Virus genome (UHGV): UHGV-0057186
Direction: 5' to 3' (one strand)
DNA length: 64,000 nt
DNA from: a virus
Shown: one piece after another, positions 5,666-33,568 of the stretch
Position numbering within the stretch: position 1 is the stretch's first letter
Layout of the letters: each line of letters begins with the position of its first letter
The notes under the pieces: model-generated
Told to the model about the DNA's origin: nothing
The model's input: the letters and a program-made list of their open reading frames with translations, nothing else
Database searches by the model: none
Made by a program: the position numbers and the translations under genes

Positions 5666-6169
5666 TCAAGTATTGTAAAACATTTGATTCAATCGCTTAT
5701 ATTGCCGAATCTTTTGGTCAGAAAAAGAAATTTGAGTTTCAAGCCATTCAATGTACTCTGCGGCAGCTTGCATTAAATTTCCTTCATAGCCATCGTTATT
5801 TTCTTGTGCAGCTAATTTAGCTAATGCGTATGAAATACGTTCACCTTGAAAATCGGCTTTAGGCTTCTGAACAACTTGATTAGTTCGCTCTACAACTTCT
5901 TCAATTTCGCCATTTTCGACTGATTCAGTATTCCACAAGCACCAATACGTAATTGGCTTATCGTAGATGTTAATAATCTTTCCGCCGGAAAGTTCAATTT
6001 CAATAATTCCAGTATCAGGTTCTATATCATCTTCGCATTCTTTTGCAAGTTCACGAACTTTAAAGACAGTACCTGCACTAAGTTCCGGCCAGTAATTACA
6101 CAGCCCTGTATCAGCACGATTAATTCTAAACCACTTATCTACTGTAATCATGTCCCATCTCCATATCAA
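5666..6169 (-). CDS. hypothetical protein (position of pin in T4)
   Basis: ORF in track; synteny only; start may be the internal ATG (MITVDKW). Confidence 0.55.
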   Translation of the reverse strand: MIWRWDMITVDKWFRINRADTGLCNYWPELSAGTVFKVRELAKECEDDIEPDTGIIEIELSGGKIINIYDKPITYWCLWNTESVENGEIEEVVERTNQVVQKPKADFQGERISYALAKLAAQENNDGYEGNLMQAAAEYIEWLETQISFSDQKIRQYKRLNQMFYNT

Positions 6170-6273
6170 TTAAGTCATTTATCGTTGGTTCATTATATAC
6201 TGTTTCTTCATCAGTGTAAACCGGTTCTTCCGGCTCTGGCTCTACAGTTTCCCATCTAGCCGCCCACCAAGGT

Positions 6274-6444
6274 TTAACCCCGAAGCTTATTAAGTTCTTC
6301 ATAACCAATCCAGGATTCTAATCCTGATGGCAGGTCACATTCAATTTCCCAAAGAAGTTCTTCAATTTTCTGAAGACGATCTAGTTCTTCAGCTGGAATA
6401 GTAACCATTGATGGAGTTCTTGATACACTAATATCGTAAATCAT
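6274..6444 (-). CDS. hypothetical protein (56 aa)
   Basis: start MIYDIS coupled to upstream stop (TAAATATG). Confidence 0.45.
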   Translation of the reverse strand: MIYDISVSRTPSMVTIPAEELDRLQKIEELLWEIECDLPSGLESWIGYEELNKLRG

Positions 6445-6446
6445 AT

Positions 6447-6662
6447 TTACCCCAGTTTGACCATGCAATCACCGTATTTCCACTTAGAAATAGACTTTTC
6501 ACCATTAGAATAATAAACTTCGAGTTTAGCACGATTATTTTTAATTTGAATAACCTTGGCTGTCATCAAAGTTCCATACCCATAGTAAACTGCAACTTCA
6601 TCACCTACATATACCGCGCTTCCGCGGTAATCATGGATATAATCAGTTCCTTCGAGCATCAT
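6447..6662 (-). CDS. hypothetical protein (71 aa)
   Basis: ORF in track; ATGATG start overlaps nrdC stop. Confidence 0.5.
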   Translation of the reverse strand: MMLEGTDYIHDYRGSAVYVGDEVAVYYGYGTLMTAKVIQIKNNRAKLEVYYSNGEKSISKWKYGDCMVKLG

Positions 6663-6922
6663 TTAAAGTATTCCCGCAATTGGTCAAATCCACCAATATG
6701 ACTTCCATCAGGAGCAAATACCTGAGGCATCGTCAAGCCGATTTGAGTATCACGACCTAGTTTAGTCAGAAGCTCAGCGATTTTCTCATCATCAAAAACA
6801 CCTTTTTCCGGCATAATGTTGATAAATTCAAACGGTTGTTTCTTCACAGTCAAGAGACGTTTTGCATTATCGCAATACACACATTTATGGATGTTGCTAT
6901 CATAACCATATACTTTAAACAT
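6659..6922 (-). CDS. nrdC: thioredoxin/glutaredoxin for phage RNR
   Basis: 87 aa, CVYC active site, matches T4 NrdC as I recall it. Confidence 0.92.
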   Translation of the reverse strand: MFKVYGYDSNIHKCVYCDNAKRLLTVKKQPFEFINIMPEKGVFDDEKIAELLTKLGRDTQIGLTMPQVFAPDGSHIGGFDQLREYFK

Positions 6923-6923
6923 A

Positions 6924-7166
6924 TTATTCCTTAATTCCTAGTACTTGTTTAAAAGTCTCGTCGTAATCAAGACTTTGACCCGTTTGTTCTTTATGTTTGT
7001 ATATAATATCACTTACTTCTGATAGCATATTTTTGTATGAACGAGTTAAAGCAGATTTAAGCACGCTGTATCTATCAGGAAATTTACCATGTTCATTATA
7101 ATAAGCTATTGCTAATTCACGGACTGCCTTTTCGGCAGTCTCCATATATTCTTTACGCTTGGTCAT
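6924..7166 (-). CDS. hypothetical protein (80 aa)
   Basis: ORF in track; synteny with T4 nrdC.1 position. Confidence 0.55.
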
Positions 7167-7168
7167 TT

Positions 7169-7537
7169 TTAATCCAAAATATTATTAGGCATTGGTTGAA
7201 CACTCGCAAGTTCTTTAAAGAACTCAGTAGAGTCAGGTAATTTAACCATTTCCGGAGCATGCTTACTAAATTTATGTTTACAATGACGACATTTATATTC
7301 AAGCTCTGGTTTACGCCAGTTAATCAATTGGACCTGTTCAGTACCGCACTCAGGACAATTAGGAACGTTTTTAGAAGCCCTTTCGCGACGTTCAACCATA
7401 ACCATAATAGCGTCCCATGCTGGAGGTTTAAAATCTAAATCGTCAGTAACTAGCAGTCCTTTATCAAACCCAGCGCATGGAGTCCATTCAGGAAAATCTG
7501 AAGCTTCGGCAATATCTTCTAATAAGCGCTTTTTCAT
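7169..7537 (-). CDS. zinc-ribbon protein (122 aa)
   Basis: CPECGTEQ...CRHCKHKF four-Cys motif. Confidence 0.55.
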
Positions 7538-8460
7538 TTCAGTACCTCAATAGCATCACGTAAACCATTTGCTTTGGCGGTTAAAGCCTTAATAACTTTA
7601 GTATGCTCTTCAATCTGTTTTTCAACTTCAATCAAACGGGCACTGAGATATTCGCGTTCTTCTTTCATAGTATCATTCCCATGATTGGGCTTTGGCGTAG
7701 GTTTAAATTTATTAGGGTCCTTTAACTTAATAACAACTTTAGTTTCAAACAGTGAAAGACCATAATTCGTATTATCATCAAAGGATTCAACTACGTCCAT
7801 TTTAGACAATAACGTACGAAGATTATAAGTCAAAGAACGAATCGTTTTATTATGTTTATTAGCTTCACATGGTTTCATATATGGAAGATTTTTATATATT
7901 TCATGCGGAGCACAAACAATAATTGACAATTCAAATGGTCCATTCTGTGATGATGGAATGAATTTAGCCGTAACCCAATCTTTTACATTTACATTAATAG
8001 TACGATCATCGCCATGACAAAACAGTCTACGAGAATGCTTAAAAAGCATATTCACATTATTATTAAATTCGTGTGAAAACTCACTGGCAAATTTTTCTTT
8101 ACTATTTTTAGAAAACCATTCTTCTAAATAAGTTCTTTTCACGTCGTTAATAATATTAAATGTAACAACATTAGCATTTGATACATTAGTCTCAATGTAG
8201 CTTGGATACATAAATTTTTTAACATTATTAACAGCTATCACAGAAGATAGTAATCGGGAACGTTTGAACCACTCGAGCAAAGAACCAAGAGAATGTGAAT
8301 ACGCATTTTGTGTATCTTTACAAATATGGTTTTCCCATCCAATATAGTCTAAAAAATCACGAAGAATATTATTGATTACTGCTCTGTGTCCGATCTGATA
8401 ATTACGATGTTTAGTAATAAGACCATCAAAATAATCAATATAATGTTTACGAGTTTTCAT
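7534..8460 (-). CDS. hypothetical protein with C-terminal coiled coil (308 aa)
   Basis: ORF in track; heptad-like C-terminus EEREYLSARLIEVEKQIEEH... Confidence 0.65.
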   Translation of the reverse strand: MKTRKHYIDYFDGLITKHRNYQIGHRAVINNILRDFLDYIGWENHICKDTQNAYSHSLGSLLEWFKRSRLLSSVIAVNNVKKFMYPSYIETNVSNANVVTFNIINDVKRTYLEEWFSKNSKEKFASEFSHEFNNNVNMLFKHSRRLFCHGDDRTINVNVKDWVTAKFIPSSQNGPFELSIIVCAPHEIYKNLPYMKPCEANKHNKTIRSLTYNLRTLLSKMDVVESFDDNTNYGLSLFETKVVIKLKDPNKFKPTPKPNHGNDTMKEEREYLSARLIEVEKQIEEHTKVIKALTAKANGLRDAIEVLK

Positions 8461-11958: not shown

Positions 11959-12486
11959 TTATGCGAGTACCGTCTTTAACCGTTCTTCAAACTTCCGAAG
12001 AGTATTTTGGCGTTCAGCTCTTTGCTTTTTGTAAGTTTCAATACGCTCTGAAATGAGAGTGTATCGTTCATTTACTGATTCTTTCATAAAATCAGGAATT
12101 TCATGAGAAGCTTTAATCTCGTCAAATTTATCAATAACTGCTTGCTCTTCAGCAATTAAGTTATCATACATCAAAATATCTTTCTTGATGAACTCAATAT
12201 CTTCTTGAGTTACACGAGATAATTTAGATGCTTTATCCTTTTTGTACTGTTCGTTAGTATCACGAGACCAGTGTAATGTACGATTTTTATTCGTATTCTT
12301 GTAAATTTCTACAATACCAATCTCATCGATAATAACGATCCAATTCCAACGAGATTTGTAAATTTGTCCTCCGTCAACCGTGATTTCACCTCCGATTGAG
12401 ATGTCATTAAAGAACTTGCTTTGTGCTTCAGATTTAAATTTACCATCGTTGTAATTTACCAGGTTGAAAATATCTTTAGCGTTCAT
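11959..12486 (-). CDS. hypothetical protein (175 aa)
   Basis: GGAGG SD; promoter cassette upstream. Confidence 0.65.
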   Translation of the reverse strand: MNAKDIFNLVNYNDGKFKSEAQSKFFNDISIGGEITVDGGQIYKSRWNWIVIIDEIGIVEIYKNTNKNRTLHWSRDTNEQYKKDKASKLSRVTQEDIEFIKKDILMYDNLIAEEQAVIDKFDEIKASHEIPDFMKESVNERYTLISERIETYKKQRAERQNTLRKFEERLKTVLA

Positions 12487-12513
12487 TTTGTGTTCCTCCG
12501 TAGTTGATAGTTG

Positions 12514-12544
12514 TATAGTACCACAGAGGAACAGTCTTGTAAAC
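12514..12544 (-). promoter_or_regulatory. early promoter cassette (GTTTAC / TACTATA)
   Basis: minus-strand GTTTAC-N18-TACTATA-CAACTATCAAC; near-identical copy at 30174-30204. Confidence 0.55.
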
Positions 12545-12546
12545 CA

Positions 12547-12950: not shown

Positions 12951-13919
12951 TTATTTCAGAAGAGTAACCTCAGCGATTTCTTCCCAACCGTTTTTGTCGG
13001 TCATAATAAAGTCAGCAAGATAAAGAGCAGTACGCAGTGAAACATTGCGTAAACGATTAACATTGACTTTCATCCATGATAATGCTTTATAAGTTTCTTC
13101 ATCAGAAAGACCGCGTTTTTGCATCATGTCAGTTGAAAGAATAACATCTTCAACCCTGACCATAATTTCTTCATTAGTGTGAACACCCAAATCTAAATAA
13201 ACTGAGCGGGACACTAATGCTTGTAAATGTGGAGCAAGTTTAGTACCACGGTCTAATTCGCGGTCAATGTCAACGTTTGTGATAAAAACAATCGTTCCTT
13301 TAAATTCAAACTCACGCTCAATGCCTTTTTCTTCTAAGTAAGAAGACGCAGTACTCCAGCAGACTTTACGGGTCTCTCCAGTGTCCAGAGCGGCTTTTAG
13401 AAGATTAAGAATGTCCATATCAGAGAAAACATCCACATCATCAATCAAAAGGACAGAATTCTCTTCACGATTATTCCAAAGCTGCTCATAAAGACCAATA
13501 CCAGAGATTTTACCATTAATGCTTTTATATTCAATGTATCCAATATCATTTGCTTTATTTAAAGCTTTATCTAAAGAATACGTTTTACCAATACCTGCTG
13601 CGCCAGAGATAATTAATGAACGAATATTTCCATTAATAATACCATTCGTCATCATTCCCATAACATTAAATCTTTTATTAATGCGGGTTTTCATATCTTC
13701 ATACGATTCTTTAACTTCTTCAACTTTTACACCATCATATGAAATGTCTGATTTGTAAACCCAAACACCGCGACGTTTACCGTCAATTTCAACAAAAACT
13801 TTACCATCTCCTTGTGCATCTACCGGAGCATTATCTGGGAACCATTCGCCTAAAAGCTCAAAAGTTCCAGAGATTTCTTTACCGAAGTAGATACCCTTAT
13901 TGATAGTTACAGTTTTCAT
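12951..13919 (-). CDS. P-loop NTPase (AAA-like ATPase)
   Basis: Walker A GAAGIGKT and Walker B LLIDDVD; 322 aa; GGAG SD. Confidence 0.7.
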   Translation of the reverse strand: MKTVTINKGIYFGKEISGTFELLGEWFPDNAPVDAQGDGKVFVEIDGKRRGVWVYKSDISYDGVKVEEVKESYEDMKTRINKRFNVMGMMTNGIINGNIRSLIISGAAGIGKTYSLDKALNKANDIGYIEYKSINGKISGIGLYEQLWNNREENSVLLIDDVDVFSDMDILNLLKAALDTGETRKVCWSTASSYLEEKGIEREFEFKGTIVFITNVDIDRELDRGTKLAPHLQALVSRSVYLDLGVHTNEEIMVRVEDVILSTDMMQKRGLSDEETYKALSWMKVNVNRLRNVSLRTALYLADFIMTDKNGWEEIAEVTLLK

Positions 13920-13937
13920 TTTATTCTCCTTTGATTT

Positions 13938-13974
13938 GATAGGACTACTATAACATAGTCCTATCAGTTTGTAT
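13938..13974 (-). promoter_or_regulatory. promoter with 10-bp perfect inverted repeat around the -10 region
   Basis: GATAGGACTA-N8-TAGTCCTATC palindrome (13938-13965) with GTATAC -35-like hexamer at 13969-13974. Confidence 0.45.
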
Positions 13975-13976
13975 AC

Positions 13977-14177
13977 TTATTTTGACATTTCTTCGATGTC
14001 ACGACGATACCCGTCACGAACTTCACGAAGAGCTTCAAGGCCACACATAGGCTCGATACCAGTAATGTGAACTTGATTAATCTGATACTCTACATCTTCT
14101 AACTGAGCGAAAACATAACGACGTTCAGCTGCACAACCAGATTTAGCTTTACCGAAACGTTTATTCAAAGTAGTCAT
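13977..14177 (-). CDS. hypothetical protein (66 aa)
   Basis: GGAG SD; promoter upstream. Confidence 0.5.
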   Translation of the reverse strand: MTTLNKRFGKAKSGCAAERRYVFAQLEDVEYQINQVHITGIEPMCGLEALREVRDGYRRDIEEMSK

Positions 14178-14214
14178 TTTGTATCTCCAATTTACTCATT
14201 TGTTTTGATAGGTC

Positions 14215-14245
14215 TATAGTATCAACAACTACAGACCATGTAAAC
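14215..14245 (-). promoter_or_regulatory. early promoter cassette (GTTTAC / TACTAT)
   Basis: GTTTAC-N18-TACTAT with GGTCT/AGACC inverted repeat flanking the -10. Confidence 0.5.
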
Positions 14246-14248
14246 AAT

Positions 14249-14512
14249 TTATTTTAATTTTCGCCAAATTTTTACTGCTTCTCGCCTCGATACTTCTACG
14301 GCGCCAAGTTCTATAGCTTTTTGACGACGACTTGCACGTAAGTCATAATGTTTAATGCGTTTATCTTGAAACCAAGAACGTTTCATTCCTATTGCTTCTG
14401 CCATTTCGTGAAGCTCTTCAATATCTCCATCAGTGAACATATGACAATTTTTAGTTGGATGACCGCGAAGTTTCCATCCATGATTCATTAAAACATCTAC
14501 GTAAACTGTCAT
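14249..14512 (-). CDS. DUF4031-like protein (87 aa)
   Basis: MTVYVD...HGW...HMFTDGD..ELH..A...G....WFQ....HYDL pattern resembles the DUF4031 family; from memory, not searched. Confidence 0.5.
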   Translation of the reverse strand: MTVYVDVLMNHGWKLRGHPTKNCHMFTDGDIEELHEMAEAIGMKRSWFQDKRIKHYDLRASRRQKAIELGAVEVSRREAVKIWRKLK

Positions 14513-14658
14513 TGATTCTTCTCCAAATAAGTTTCGATAATTTTCTGGGCGAGATAAACCGCGTTATCTTCAGTTGCGTCTTCTAAGAAACTTTCAAAAC
14601 ACTCTGAAATTTCTTCTGTATCAATCAACTTTTTTACTTCAATTGGTGTAATTTTCAT
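14509..14658 (-). CDS. hypothetical small acidic protein (49 aa), not in ORF track
   Basis: ATG 14656-14658, clean 49-codon frame MKITPIEVKKLIDTEE..., stop overlaps next ATG (ATGA); promoter cassette upstream. Confidence 0.35.
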   Translation of the reverse strand: MKITPIEVKKLIDTEEISECFESFLEDATEDNAVYLAQKIIETYLEKNQ

Positions 14659-14693
14659 TTTGTTTTCCGTTTAAGTGTTTGTTTTGATAGTTG

Positions 14694-14724
14694 TATAGTA
14701 CCATAAAGCTTTATGCTTGTAAAC
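14694..14724 (-). promoter_or_regulatory. early promoter cassette (GTTTAC / TACTATA)
   Basis: GTTTAC-N18-TACTATA-CAACTATCAAAAC. Confidence 0.5.
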
Positions 14725-14748
14725 AGTTTTGTGAAAAATTTTTGAAAT

Positions 14749-14772
14749 AAAAAAGGGAGCCCGAAGGCTCCC
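14749..14772 (-). terminator. intrinsic terminator
   Basis: GGGAGCC-TTCG-GGCTCCC hairpin followed by TTTTTTATTTC on minus strand, 3 nt after stop of 14775..15788. Confidence 0.55.
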
Positions 14773-14774
14773 TA

Positions 14775-15788
14775 TCATTTATAATAGCTTCGGTGGTTTT
14801 CAAGATAAACCTTCTCAAGGAAGTCATCCCAGAAACCCATGTCTACTTTTTGCTGCATACCGTTCTTAGAAGCTTCAGTAGATGCTGCTTCTACTTGATC
14901 GACCACATCTTCCAAAAACTCTTGAACTGTTTTAAATGGATGTTTACCCAACTTCACGTCGAGAATAAATGGAGCATCTTGGAGTGGATAAACCAAGTCA
15001 CCAGTTTTGTAAATTTCCAATAGTTGGAGTCCACCACGGCAGGCATGGCTCAGAGCTTTCCAGTCAATGCCTTCATTGGCTTCGGCCTTACGAGCGCGTT
15101 CACCGTATTCAGCATCTAATTTGTTCAGTGACTGCTTAAGCTCAATAAGAGAAAGCGTTGTCTGATATTTACGACCCAACACAGTGTAGAACGTTTGTGG
15201 GCCTGTTTTCTCATGATTATGGAACACCCATTCACAGAATTCGTTTTCTGGAAGACGATGCTTAATATCTTCAACTTTAGTACGACGCTGCTTAATAGAA
15301 CCATCTTCTTGGTAATCAATCCATTGCTCAGGGATTTGATTAACTACTTTCAATACATCACGTAATGCAGCCAAACGAGAACCCTTGACGCCATATTTAG
15401 AAGCTTGCTTACGGACATATCCTAAATAGGATTTCATGTTAGTCGTATAAAAACGAGAACGGTTGTCTTGAATAAACTTCCACACATCAGGCAAATCAGA
15501 TTTAACCACTAGTTCAGGTGGAGTGTGAAGCATATCCAATGCTACGGTTTCACCATCTGCTGCTAATTTAAAGAAATATTTAAGACTGTATAGTTCATGG
15601 TCAATATCATCTTTAGTGTTTTTAGATGATGTGTTGTTAGTGTTTTTACTCATATGCTCTTTGACATTTCCGATAAGAATATCGCGAGCAGGAGGAACAA
15701 AGATTTCTTTAAAATCTACATCAGATTCTGGGGTAGAAGTTCCATAAAGATGACTACCAAAATAGCTTTTCATTACTGTTTTCATCAT
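14775..15788 (-). CDS. Pol-beta-superfamily nucleotidyltransferase-like protein (337 aa)
   Basis: N-terminal GSHLYGTSTPESDVD matches the G[GS]-x9-13-D-x-[DE] NTase signature; rest has no recognised motif. Confidence 0.65.
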   Translation of the reverse strand: MMKTVMKSYFGSHLYGTSTPESDVDFKEIFVPPARDILIGNVKEHMSKNTNNTSSKNTKDDIDHELYSLKYFFKLAADGETVALDMLHTPPELVVKSDLPDVWKFIQDNRSRFYTTNMKSYLGYVRKQASKYGVKGSRLAALRDVLKVVNQIPEQWIDYQEDGSIKQRRTKVEDIKHRLPENEFCEWVFHNHEKTGPQTFYTVLGRKYQTTLSLIELKQSLNKLDAEYGERARKAEANEGIDWKALSHACRGGLQLLEIYKTGDLVYPLQDAPFILDVKLGKHPFKTVQEFLEDVVDQVEAASTEASKNGMQQKVDMGFWDDFLEKVYLENHRSYYK

Positions 15789-16258
15789 TCAGCCTTATAT
15801 TCAATAACAGGACATACTTTAGCTTTACGCGCTTTTAAAAATTCGACGATAATAGATTTCTTGGGTTGAATAGGAGGTAAACCTTTATACGCCCTATCAA
15901 TATTTTCTACATGTAAAGCATAATCCTTTTTCCATTTATAATCTTTATATTTTTCACGCAGTTGTGCAGGAATAACAAATGAACCGATAATAAGTAAAAC
16001 AAGCAAAATGGCAAGTATAAATGCTGATGGAATAAGAGTCCATAAACTACCAAAAATAAGCCATTTCTGCATGATTTCTGCGCAGATAATAGTTAGACCT
16101 ACGAGTATAGTACATCCGAAAAAAGAAACGAAAAATGTAGGAATAACAATAGACCAAAAATACGCGCACAGTGTCTTAGGTCGTTGCCATTCATCGTTAA
16201 ACAATTTGAATAATTTATAGTGCCAAGAGTTTTCATTAATAATCATAATTATAATCAT
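15785..16258 (-). CDS. membrane protein (157 aa)
   Basis: multiple hydrophobic helices; start overlaps upstream stop. Confidence 0.6.
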   Translation of the reverse strand: MIIIMIINENSWHYKLFKLFNDEWQRPKTLCAYFWSIVIPTFFVSFFGCTILVGLTIICAEIMQKWLIFGSLWTLIPSAFILAILLVLLIIGSFVIPAQLREKYKDYKWKKDYALHVENIDRAYKGLPPIQPKKSIIVEFLKARKAKVCPVIEYKAE

Positions 16259-16776
16259 CCTTTCATTGAAGGCGTAACGGTTGTTAAATACTTAATCATA
16301 GCTTCAGCTTCTGATTTTGATAATGAAATTTCTCCATTGTTTTGACGAATAGAAATAAAATCCGGATGACGGTCACCACCGGCTTTTAAAACACACATAT
16401 AAGTATCAGTTTCATCTTCAATATTTGAAATGATTGAAGCAGTTCCACACGAATGTGGTTTTTGATAAATCAATACAGCTTTTCTTCCACCATTTGACTG
16501 TTCATAAACTTTTAATACATCAAACAAATCACTTCTTTTATCAATAGCTAAAATGTTGTTTTCATCTTCAATGTTAAATCCTTCGGATACTTCATAAAGT
16601 GTCACCCATAAATCACCTATATCGATAGTAGCATTTTCCTTTCCATGACTTTCAAGAGCATGACAAATTTTCTTGATTTCGTCATAACTCATTTTAATAA
16701 TATCATCTCCTTGACTAAGAAAGATGTCATTTTTAAATTCAACACGAATTAAACCGCTTCCACTTGAAATAAACAT
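16255..16776 (-). CDS. hypothetical protein (173 aa)
   Basis: ORF in track; C-terminal tail resembles that of 16783..17325. Confidence 0.6.
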   Translation of the reverse strand: MFISSGSGLIRVEFKNDIFLSQGDDIIKMSYDEIKKICHALESHGKENATIDIGDLWVTLYEVSEGFNIEDENNILAIDKRSDLFDVLKVYEQSNGGRKAVLIYQKPHSCGTASIISNIEDETDTYMCVLKAGGDRHPDFISIRQNNGEISLSKSEAEAMIKYLTTVTPSMKG

Positions 16777-16782
16777 ATTTCC

Positions 16783-17325
16783 TCACTTTGAAATCATAGT
16801 TGGAATGACAGAATCAAGATAAGTCTTTAACGCAATAGCTTCGTCTTTGGTAAATGTGACAATATGCGCTCGAAAATCATCAATTTGACGAATAGTTAAG
16901 ACATCTCCATCTTCATAACATTTTGATACATTTAAAACAGTTTCATCATTCTGATCGCACTGATCGCAAGCGTTAGTAATAATAGCATTGCAATTTTTAA
17001 GCCATTTTAAACTATGTTTTCTTTCATTAGAATAATAAAAATATTTAATGTAAGTTATAAAATTATCCCAATTATTAATTGATAAGCATATTGACTCGCT
17101 TTCAATGTTAAATCCTGGGCATAAAGAATAGAAATGAATTTTATGCTCATCATTAATGCTTACAATTTTATCAGTGTAAGGTTTTTCAATTTGGGTTAAA
17201 TGAATAATTTCGCTAGGCGTAAAATATAGCATATCGTCTTCTTGCGTCAAACGATACATATTATTTACTTTTTCTATAGCCAATTCACCAAAAAATGAAC
17301 TAACTTCTAATACTAATCGTTTCAT
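16783..17325 (-). CDS. hypothetical protein (180 aa)
   Basis: ORF in track; possible paralogue of 16255..16776. Confidence 0.6.
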   Translation of the reverse strand: MKRLVLEVSSFFGELAIEKVNNMYRLTQEDDMLYFTPSEIIHLTQIEKPYTDKIVSINDEHKIHFYSLCPGFNIESESICLSINNWDNFITYIKYFYYSNERKHSLKWLKNCNAIITNACDQCDQNDETVLNVSKCYEDGDVLTIRQIDDFRAHIVTFTKDEAIALKTYLDSVIPTMISK

Positions 17326-32618: not shown

Positions 32619-32695
32619 TGGCCAGGGTGAAAGGATTCTAACCTTTAACCTGCGGTTTAGAGGACCGCTACTCTATACAATTGAGTTACACCCCG
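32619..32695 (-). tRNA. tRNA-Arg (anticodon UCU)
   Basis: manual cloverleaf: acceptor CGGGGUG/CACCCUG, anticodon stem GCGGU/ACCGC, loop CCUCUAA, T-arm AAAGG-UUAGAAU-CCUUU, CCA encoded. Confidence 0.7.
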
Positions 32696-32820
32696 TAATT
32701 AGTTCACAGCAATACCTACTCCAACAATCAAGATGTCTTCACACGAAATTAAGAGAAGAGTGATCAGTTTAACCCCTATAATCGCGTCAAGTGATATTAA
32801 TGTGACAACTGTCACAAGTT

Positions 32821-32895
32821 TGGCGGACGTGATAGGATTCGAACCTATAACAAATCGCTTAACAGGCGATCGCTCTGCCATTGAGCTACACATCC
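32821..32895 (-). tRNA. tRNA-Asn (anticodon GUU)
   Basis: manual cloverleaf: acceptor GGAUGUG/CACGUCC, anticodon loop CUGUUAA, T-arm AUAGG-UUCGAAU-CCUAU, CCA encoded. Confidence 0.7.
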
Positions 32896-32899
32896 AAAT

Positions 32900-32986
32900 T
32901 GGTGGGGAGTGATGGAGTCGAACCACCCGAGTCGCAATGACAATGGATTTACAGTCCACACCGCTACCTCTACGGGATAACTCCCC
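32900..32986 (-). tRNA. tRNA-Tyr (anticodon GUA), type II with long variable arm
   Basis: acceptor GGGGAGU/ACUCCCC, anticodon stem GUGGA/UCCAU loop CUGUAAA, T-arm GGUGG-UUCGACU-CCAUC, CCA encoded. Confidence 0.7.
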
Positions 32987-32995
32987 AAATTAATT

Positions 32996-33070
32996 TGGTG
33001 GCCCTGGGTGGAATTGAACCACCATCTGGCGATTATGAGTCGCTTGCTTGAACCTTCCAGCTACAGGGCC
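32996..33070 (-). tRNA. tRNA-Ile (anticodon CAU, presumably modified) or tRNA-Met
   Basis: acceptor GGCCCUG/CAGGGCC, anticodon loop CUCAUAA; corresponds to T4 tRNA-Ile position next to tRNA-Thr. Confidence 0.75.
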
Positions 33071-33071
33071 T

Positions 33072-33147
33072 TGGTGCTGATTGACGGAATCGAACCGCCG
33101 ACCTTCTCATTACAAGTGAGTTGCTCTACCTACTGAGCTAAATCAGC
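33072..33147 (-). tRNA. tRNA-Thr (anticodon UGU)
   Basis: reverse complement reads GCUGAUUUAGCUCAGUAGGUAGAGCAACUCACUUGUAAUGAG..., as T4 tRNA-Thr. Confidence 0.9.
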
Positions 33148-33152
33148 AAAAC

Positions 33153-33242
33153 TGGCGGAGGCGATAGGATTTGAACCTATGAGTCGCCGGAGCGACTGCC
33201 GGTTTTCAAGACCGGTGCATTAAACCACTCTGCCACGCCTCC
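33153..33242 (-). tRNA. tRNA-Ser (anticodon UGA), type II
   Basis: reads GGAGGCGUGGCAGAGUGGUUUAAUGCACCGGUCUUGAAAACCGG...; long variable arm. Confidence 0.9.
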
Positions 33243-33244
33243 AG

Positions 33245-33318
33245 TCTCCATACAAGGATTTGAACCTTGGACCTCCTGATCCCAAATCAGGCGCTCTACC
33301 AAACTGAGCTACACGGAG
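33245..33318 (-). tRNA. tRNA-Pro (anticodon UGG)
   Basis: anticodon loop UUUGGGA; T-arm GGUUCAAAUCC; CCA not encoded. Confidence 0.85.
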
Positions 33319-33328
33319 TAAATTAAAT

Positions 33329-33402
<74 letters not shown>

Positions 33403-33407
33403 AAATT

Positions 33408-33494
33408 TGGTGCGAGAAGTGGGACTCGAACCCACAAGGAAATCATTCCGCAGCATTTTAAGTGCTGTGCCTTTACCAATTTGACCATTCTCGC
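33408..33494 (-). tRNA. tRNA-Leu (anticodon UAA), type II
   Basis: reads GCGAGAAUGGUCAAAUUGGUAAAGGCACAGCACUUAAAAUGCUG...; long variable arm; CCA encoded. Confidence 0.9.
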
Positions 33495-33495
33495 G

Positions 33496-33568
33496 CTGGG
33501 AATAAAGGACTCGAACCTTTGCATCCTGGAATCAAAATCCAGTGCCTTACCAACTTGGCTAATTCCCA
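33496..33568 (-). tRNA. tRNA-Gln (anticodon UUG)
   Basis: acceptor UGGGAAU/AUUCCCA, anticodon loop UUUUGAU, T-arm AAAGG-UUCGAGU-CCUUU; CCA not encoded; abuts tRNA-Leu. Confidence 0.85.

Follow-up and report, generated by a model that had tools for sequence, protein, structure and literature searches.

An RlaP-family nucleotidyltransferase orthologous to T4 NrdC.11 and its possible role in phage tRNA repair

Results

An ortholog of T4 nrdC.11 in a T4-like genome segment

The subject of this work is a gene on the minus strand of a 64-kb stretch of the UHGV virus genome UHGV-0057186, which is referred to below as the window. A preliminary description made from the sequence alone had reported a 337-residue open reading frame (ORF) encoding a Pol-beta-type nucleotidyltransferase (NTase), and the ORF and the N-terminus of its product, MMKTVMKSYFGSHLYGTSTPESDVDFKE, are as described there (Table 1). 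The window is a segment of a Tequatrovirus (T4-like) genome, and phages FJ1, slur03, and slur14 share 99.5-99.7% identity with the 2.1 kb around the gene, a region that matches 651 phage records. Over 336 residues, the encoded protein is 98% identical to T4 NrdC.11 (NP_049709.1), which carries the RefSeq product name 'nucleotidyltransferase' and whose gene lies between nrdC.10 and mobD, at the same map position. These observations indicate that the window gene and T4 nrdC.11 are the same gene, one that is known, annotated, and well conserved; the earlier statement that a nucleotidyltransferase is not known at this place in T4 is thus corrected. A search of other T4-like genomes, which had also been proposed, revealed the gene by tblastn in 1518 phage records, including T4-like phages of Escherichia, Klebsiella, Aeromonas, Acinetobacter, and Vibrio, and its neighbors were compared with those in T4. 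It is named nrdC.11 in RB69, VR7, Bp7, and Acj61.

In the T4 and slur14 RefSeq records, the start codon is placed one codon later (ATG at 15785, giving 336 residues), and the spacing of an AAGG Shine-Dalgarno element, as read from the sequence, suits this second ATG better than the first. With either start, the beginning of nrdC.11 overlaps the TGA stop codon of the upstream 157-residue gene (ATGATG/TGA).

A literature search for 'nrdC.11' retrieved mentions in genome comparisons and one deletion study, and no functional work. A 2006 paper tied nrdC.11 to the nucleotidyltransferase domain COG3541 (PMC1524935), and a December 2025 preprint on Pseudomonas RlaPs places 'T4NrdC.11' in cluster 5 of its network of the family and describes it as an RlaP of unknown function (PMC12776372). 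Many homologous entries in GenBank and UniRef are labeled 'thioredoxin', and one is labeled 'HNH homing endonuclease'. A thioredoxin domain is absent from the 337-residue protein, and the 'thioredoxin' label is probably a spill-over from the nrdC gene name; taken together, the two labels look like annotation spill-over from that name or from neighboring genes.

Family membership and catalytic residues

The protein matches Pfam family PF10127 (RlaP) with an E value of 2.5e-11 and a score of 44.2 bits, compared with a gathering cut-off of 23, and PF10127 was the sole family matched in a Pfam scan at E <= 0.01. The match spans only positions 23-142 of the 249 in the profile. Likewise, PHROG 388 ('nucleotidyltransferase') is matched along the entire protein with an E value of 8e-137; in NCBIfam, neither the protein nor its neighbors had a model. 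PF10127 is also matched by 40 of 41 diverse relatives. As judged by its profile score, then, the protein is a member of the RlaP family above the Pfam threshold. An exhaustive search of cluster representatives at 50% identity returned 3428 clusters at E <= 1e-3, including 828 at E <= 1e-30, nearly all of them full-length proteins of 310-350 residues.

To assess residue conservation, we aligned 41 relatives (29-54% identity). Twelve residues are invariant (G11, S12, G16, S22, D23, D25, N57, Y132, R231, H248, R251, and P268) and a further eight are at least 90% conserved (D61, D63, D85, K135, R138, D242, W243, and K244). In canonical RlaP, the aligned counterpart of the G11-S12...D23-x-D25 signature is the SGS...DSDYD motif. 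In a profile-profile comparison (hhalign) with ten canonical RlaPs, residues 5-130 align with a probability of 93.5% and an E value of 2e-7, and in this alignment D23 and D25 fall on the canonical D-x-D while D61 falls on an invariant canonical Asp, so that the catalytic triad is likely to consist of D23, D25, and D61, with the third residue assigned by alignment rather than from coordinates. The Pol-beta nucleotidyltransferase motif of the preliminary description is therefore real, as seen from PF10127, PHROG 388, the invariant G11, S12, D23, and D25, and the Pol-beta structural matches given below. The catalytic carboxylates, whose loss would have spoken against that description, are in place in the alignment, with D23 and D25 invariant and D61 conserved in at least 90% of the relatives.

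A subfamily-specific C-terminal module

A second search for homologs, made with a profile, brought back mostly the same close T4-like proteins, and the structure was therefore modeled with AlphaFold2 from a shallow alignment of 23 sequences at 51-99% identity, giving a predicted local distance difference test score of 83 and a predicted template modeling (TM) score of 0.69. The model consists of an alpha/beta core that extends to approximately residue 150, a beta-rich insert of five strands (residues 155-209), and a helical bundle (residues 214-336) that carries the invariant R231, H248, R251, and P268. Structure prediction followed by a Foldseek search, as proposed in the preliminary description, recovered the NTase core fold. 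Against BFVD, the whole model aligns to canonical-type phage NTases with TM-scores of 0.4-0.55. Against the PDB, the best solved matches are Pol-beta NTases, and these are weak (best E value 7.5e-3, TM-score of approximately 0.27). Thus, both the Pol-beta superfamily motif and the alpha/beta NTase core fold are present. Sequence searches of the PDB with the protein and with a five-sequence profile returned nothing relevant; the hits, all at E >= 0.03, were to myosin light chains and were spurious, and no crystal structure of PfRlaP turned up in the copies of the PDB that were searched.

The profile-profile comparison with canonical RlaP detected no homology past residue 130, leaving the last ~200 residues without detectable sequence similarity. 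The preliminary description had found no motif in the remaining ~300 residues; they instead include a conserved domain marked by Y132, R231, H248, R251, and P268 and common to thousands of full-length relatives. By these sequence comparisons, alignment with canonical RlaP is limited to residues ~5-130, and the C-terminal 200 residues, comprising the beta insert and the helical bundle with its invariant R231, H248, and R251, define a separate full-length subfamily; both points are new here. A role of the C-terminal bundle as a HEPN RNase was considered and rejected, as inspection by eye revealed no Rx4-6H motif around R231, R233, and R251.

The NrdC.11-type proteins share with canonical RlaPs (of Pseudomonas fluorescens and P. 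aeruginosa and of the phiKZ type) the N-terminal Pol-beta core with its G-S...D-x-D...D residues and, by the model, a two-domain plan in which the NTase is joined to a helical C-terminal domain. They differ in being ~80 residues longer, in having the beta-rich insert at residues 155-209, and in having invariant residues of their own (Y132, R231, H248, and R251). Among solved structures, the nearest neighbors of the catalytic core are Hailong HalB, KNTase/LinB, and the MNT minimal NTases. These, however, are only 7-15% identical to it, act on other substrates (dATP oligomers, antibiotics, and a HEPN toxin), and differ in gene context.

RNA-repair genes beside bacterial and archaeal relatives

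We scanned one genome per prokaryotic species, which yielded 156 relatives, and surveyed the best 80 loci. Each codes for an NrdC.11-type protein of full length with 32-54% identity, and the source organisms include Desulfobacterales, Nitrospirota, Alphaproteobacteria, and some archaea, among others. Neighboring ORFs were called and scanned with Pfam, after which all 80 loci were surveyed with named seeds. A gene for Pnkp, Hen1, RtcB, RtcA, Ro/TROVE, or a kinase-phosphatase-Rnl1 fusion lies within 6 kb in 20 of the 80 loci. In addition, a canonical, full-profile RlaP (255 residues, PF10127 E value of 1e-77) is encoded immediately downstream on the same strand in 21 of the 70 loci that have enough downstream sequence. 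When only the loci with full flanks are counted, at least one repair gene or canonical RlaP is present in 23 of 42.

The pair of NTase genes often lies inside Hen1-Pnkp or Ro-RtcB-RtcA operons (loci L007-L086). For example, Asticcacaulis has the operon Hen1-Pnkp-NrdC.11-like-RlaP (loci L056 and L076, with the pairs at 6001-7802 and 6001-7796, respectively), and a Nitrosospira contig has the order Ro-RtcB-RtcA-NrdC.11-like-RlaP-Hen1 (L040, pair at 6004-7746). In another locus (L055), a gene for a fusion of polynucleotide kinase (PNK), phosphatase, and Rnl1 ends 4 nucleotides before the start of the NrdC.11-like gene. These neighborhoods indicate that the RNA-repair linkage for which RlaP was named holds for the NrdC.11 branch too. 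Since the NrdC.11-type and canonical proteins are encoded side by side, they do not appear to be interchangeable copies, and their recurrent pairing suggests a division of labor in which the two have different jobs. The pairing and the operon context of the subfamily are observations of this analysis, and the pairing and the two RlaP classes may already stand in the 2016 work of Burroughs and Aravind, which named RlaP. Apparent fusions of the two NTase genes in loci L075 and L083 were rejected; in L075, the long stop-free piece lies in another frame than the NrdC.11-like match, and L083 is assumed to be the same artifact.

No canonical RlaP was found in the 64-kb window. Among phages, canonical RlaP is not in T4-like phages and occurs in 81 records, mostly of jumbo phages such as phiKZ. 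A separate arrangement was seen in Rheinheimera phage Barba19A (84 kb, not T4-like; L006, 2247-4900), where an NrdC.11-type gene directly follows genes for a CCA-adding tRNA nucleotidyltransferase and a small hydrolase. Together, the three genes may form a compact module for the repair of tRNA ends.

Flanking genes, regulatory sites, and rearrangement relative to T4

The features of the locus are collected in Table 1. The preliminary description had placed the gene in an ORFan block. Every neighbor, however, belongs to a known family: the DUF4031 gene, the 49- and 66-residue ORFs, the membrane-protein gene, two y05I-like genes, and nrdC.10 are all in PHROG or Pfam families, in keeping with the 651 phage records noted above. 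Other parts of that description were borne out, namely the terminator directly after the gene, the overlap of the gene start with the stop of a membrane-protein gene, and the DUF4031-like gene and 49-residue acidic ORF downstream. The membrane-protein gene, which stands where T4 has mobD and is not at this position in T4, is together with the 49-residue ORF and the DUF4031 gene context and not part of the enzyme.

Table 1. Positions of nrdC.11, its functional segments, and flanking features in the window.
Feature	Position	Strand	Basis or remarks
nrdC.11 ortholog, RlaP-family Pol-beta nucleotidyltransferase	14775..15788	-	ORF, 337 residues from the first ATG
Codons 11-25, G11-S12...D23-x-D25 signature with two of the three metal-binding carboxylates	15714..15758	-	Invariant in 41 relatives
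Codon D61, probable third catalytic carboxylate	15606..15608	-	Start of beta-strand 62-68 (model); alignment
Subfamily-specific C-terminal module, codons ~132-337	14778..15395	-	K/R-rich 131-142, beta insert 155-209, helical bundle 214-336
Intrinsic terminator, AGGGAGCC-UUCG-GGCUCCCU then UUUUUUAUUUC	14744..14773	-	Scan and RNA fold
Early-promoter-like site TTTACA-17-TACTAT, extended TG	14695..14723	-	Consensus scan only
157-residue membrane-protein gene, upstream	15785..16258	-	PHROG 944 'membrane protein', E value 6.5e-50; two long hydrophobic stretches
49-residue acidic ORF (isoelectric point 4.2), PHROG 6888	14509..14658	-	5' end just outside the inserted segment, rest inside
87-residue DUF4031 gene	14249..14512	-	PF13223, E value 6.8e-22; PHROG 4887; within the segment inserted relative to T4

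The terminator, which is strong and which the scan placed at 14773..14754 on the minus strand, begins one base past the nrdC.11 stop codon. It has an 8-bp stem, six pairs of which are G-C, and a UUCG loop, followed by a T6 tail; its calculated folding energy is -17.7 kcal/mol (z = -3.9). Together with the promoter-like site that follows, it forms a cassette ahead of the 49-residue ORF. Similar promoter-like sites were found by consensus scan at 14216..14244 and 13947..13975, both on the minus strand.

Compared with the T4 locus, the window has the same position of nrdC.11 relative to nrdC.10 and a terminator region that is 95% identical at the DNA level. It differs, however, on both sides of the gene. 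Between nrdC.10 and nrdC.11, a segment of 722 bp (13930..14651) is absent from T4. This segment holds a 66-residue ORF (13977..14177), the DUF4031 gene, and most of the 49-residue acidic ORF, and each of these small genes is preceded by its own TTTACA-17-TACTAT promoter-like site. Both edges of the segment align to the same 17 nucleotides of T4, and the arrangement looks like cassette-type gene shuffling. Promoter/stem-loop cassettes are reportedly thought to shuffle genes in T4-type genomes, a view attributed to Arbiol et al. in 2010. Upstream of nrdC.11, at 15790..16757, the T4 homing endonuclease gene mobD is replaced by the membrane-protein gene and an extra y05I-like gene, which leaves two y05I paralogs in tandem (16255..16776 and 16783..17325), and both contain PF24449 and PF24448 domains.

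Two further observations concern the downstream side. A stretch of 64 nucleotides at 12482-12545 is 76% identical to the terminator-promoter region between nrdC.10 and nrdC.11 in T4 and represents a further copy of the regulatory cassette. The nrdC.10 gene itself (12951-13919, 322 residues) encodes a conserved P-loop protein that adjoins the NTase in T4; its product has sub-threshold matches to AAA_14 and nSTAND3 (AAA/STAND NTPase) and weak matches to clamp-loader families in PHROG.

Discussion

A possible fill-in step in tRNA repair

Given the family and the gene neighborhoods of NrdC.11, we propose that the enzyme extends the 3'-OH of a tRNA damaged by a nuclease with additional nucleotides and that T4 RNA ligase then seals the break, a reading that is drawn by analogy and to which we assign a probability of roughly 60%. 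In this scheme, a host anticodon nuclease or ribotoxin would cut a tRNA and trim at least one nucleotide from it, as an RloC-type enzyme does in removing the wobble base. T4 Pnkp would then take off the 2',3'-cyclic phosphate or 3'-phosphate and leave a 3'-OH on the 5' half. D23, D25, and D61 of NrdC.11 would hold two divalent metals, probably Mn2+, and a nucleoside triphosphate (NTP), the basic helical C-terminal module would hold the broken RNA, and one or two nucleotides would be added to that 3'-OH without a template. Finally, T4 Rnl1 or Rnl2, which are 5'-phosphate ligases and need a 3'-OH and a 5'-phosphate, would seal the break, and part of the repaired tRNA pool would regain its full length and function. 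For NrdC.11 itself, we infer the RNA substrate, the number of nucleotides added, the cooperation with Pnkp and Rnl1, and the identity of the nuclease that is countered.

The biochemistry behind this proposal comes from the Pseudomonas RlaPs. These enzymes add one or two nucleoside monophosphates to an RNA 3'-OH with little NTP specificity, favor Mn2+, favor the 5' half of a cleaved-tRNA mimic over the acceptor-side fragment, and leave DNA and protein unlabeled (PMC12776372). They also raise the aminoacylation of a repaired tRNA that had lost one anticodon-loop nucleotide, and according to the authors the 3'-OH product suits 5'-phosphate ligases (PMC12776372). In 2008, RloC's removal of the wobble nucleotide was proposed to defeat T4 repair by Pnkp and Rnl1 (PMC2610378). 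It is this combination, of a lesion that defies Pnkp and Rnl1 with an RlaP activity on trimmed tRNA, that leads us to suggest a refilling step by NrdC.11.

Several points weigh against this proposal. RlaP activity has been measured for the canonical type only, in Pseudomonas, and the same preprint lists NrdC.11 as an RlaP of unknown function (PMC12776372). The homology to the characterized enzymes is confined to the N-terminal ~130 residues, and because the substrate-binding C-terminal 200 residues differ, the substrate and product could differ from those of the characterized RlaPs as well. In T4-like phages the gene does not adjoin pseT, rnlA, or rnlB, and no RNA-repair gene (ligase, PNK, or RtcB) was found in the 64-kb window. 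Even among the bacterial loci, more than half are without a recognized repair gene nearby. Canonical RlaP, often the partner of the bacterial NrdC.11-type protein, is absent from T4, which hints that the step carried out in T4 is non-redundant and possibly a different one. Lastly, T4 lacking nrdC.11-mobD.3 is viable in the laboratory, which fits an accessory counter-defense role and offers that role no positive support.

Relation to alternative functions

The preliminary description had suggested tRNA end repair or nucleotidylation of a host or defense target as candidate roles. RNA or tRNA-end repair is now the best supported of these, whereas CCA addition and a protein target are disfavored by the biochemistry of the family and by the lack of a CCA-family match. 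Maintenance of the CCA end, in which tRNAs of the phage or the host, such as the phage tRNA-Pro and tRNA-Gln, or tRNAs trimmed by a host toxin would have their acceptor ends completed or mended by NrdC.11, has some attraction in view of the tRNA cluster of the window (32619-33568). This cluster holds ten genes (Arg, Asn, Tyr, Met(CAT), Thr, Ser, Pro, Gly, Leu, and Gln), compared with eight in T4, and the tRNA with the CAT anticodon may be an Ile (lysidine) tRNA rather than a Met tRNA. As the preliminary description had noted, tRNA-Pro and tRNA-Gln have no encoded CCA; the other eight do. The Pseudomonas RlaPs also labeled RNAs of full-length tRNA size in total RNA, but they add only one or two nucleotides with low NTP specificity and favor an internal break (PMC12776372). 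Class II CCA-adding enzymes and poly(A) polymerases belong to the same Pol-beta superfamily and also extend RNA 3' ends without a template, but NrdC.11 has another C-terminal domain, shows no sign of C/C/A specificity, and has no match to the CCA-adding/PolyA_pol head domain at E <= 0.01, where PF10127 alone was matched. The position of the Barba19A homolog directly after tRNA nucleotidyltransferase and hydrolase genes can be read in favor of an acceptor-end role, yet a dedicated CCA enzyme next door argues that the homolog has a different job. CCA addition to T4 tRNA-Pro and tRNA-Ser reportedly needs the host cca enzyme, as is attributed to Seidman and McClain and to Deutscher. We tried CCA addition as the principal explanation and set it aside because there is no family match and the additions made by the family are short and nonspecific; in our estimation it is rather unlikely.

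A more distant target is conceivable as well. If NrdC.11 nucleotidylated a protein or small molecule, it would transfer AMP or another nucleoside monophosphate to a host defense factor or metabolite, in the manner of MNT antitoxins acting on HEPN toxins or of the aminoglycoside and lincosamide NTases acting on drugs, and a C-terminal module unrelated in sequence to the RNA-modifying RlaPs would accord with such a substrate. We consider this distinctly improbable, since the likeness to those enzymes is at the level of fold only (7-15% identity, Foldseek E >= 7.5e-3), Pfam gave no match to NTP_transf_2, AbiEii, or KNTase, and the gene neighbors of the subfamily are RNA-repair enzymes rather than toxin or resistance genes. 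The characterized RlaPs, moreover, left protein unlabeled (PMC12776372). Beside the gene itself there is no HEPN/AbiEi partner; the neighbors are the membrane protein, the 49-residue acidic ORF, and DUF4031. It is highly improbable that NrdC.11 makes or extends a short nucleotide signal or decoy that triggers or jams a defense system, in the manner of Hailong HalB or the CD-NTases, given that the match covers only the NTase core (~134-155 residues, 15% identity, TM-score of ~0.27), that the nearby ORFs and their PHROG families include no partner effector gene, and that both the sequence family and the gene neighborhoods point to RNA repair.

Place beside the known phage pathway and significance

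A fill-in step by NrdC.11 would relate to T4 tRNA repair, in which Pnkp/PseT and Rnl1 act against the PrrC anticodon nuclease, through a shared phage lineage and through the bacterial NrdC.11-type relatives, which adjoin Pnkp and the PNK-phosphatase-Rnl1 fusion; residence in RNA-repair operons is likewise what these relatives share with canonical RlaP. In contrast, on the T4 map nrdC.11 lies apart from pseT and rnlA, its participation in the pathway is suggested by analogy, and the step itself would lie outside the classical heal-and-seal scheme.

A broader version of the proposal, which we regard as tentative and on the whole doubtful, is that T4 tRNA repair has a missing third enzyme, NrdC.11, and, at the same time, that NrdC.11-type proteins are a functionally distinct class of RlaP. 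Under this version, NrdC.11 would refill the nucleotides excised by 'smart' nucleases such as RloC so that Pnkp and Rnl1 could restore a working tRNA. The class would have its own RNA-binding C-terminal module and would act in bacteria in tandem with canonical RlaP, for example with the two enzymes differing in the nucleotide that they add or in the end on which they act, and T4 would have kept only the NrdC.11 half of the pair.

As a finding, the gene adds little, being a known and annotated member of a known family. The value of the analysis lies in a candidate tRNA-repair role for NrdC.11 in the phage and in the pairing of its branch with canonical RlaP in bacterial repair operons. If the proposal is true, a phage enzyme that refills gaps would overturn the view that RloC-type removal of the wobble nucleotide beats T4 heal-and-seal repair, and it would complete a textbook pathway. 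The function of NrdC.11 in phage is testable now, with the repair-operon context and the pairing with canonical RlaP as pointers.

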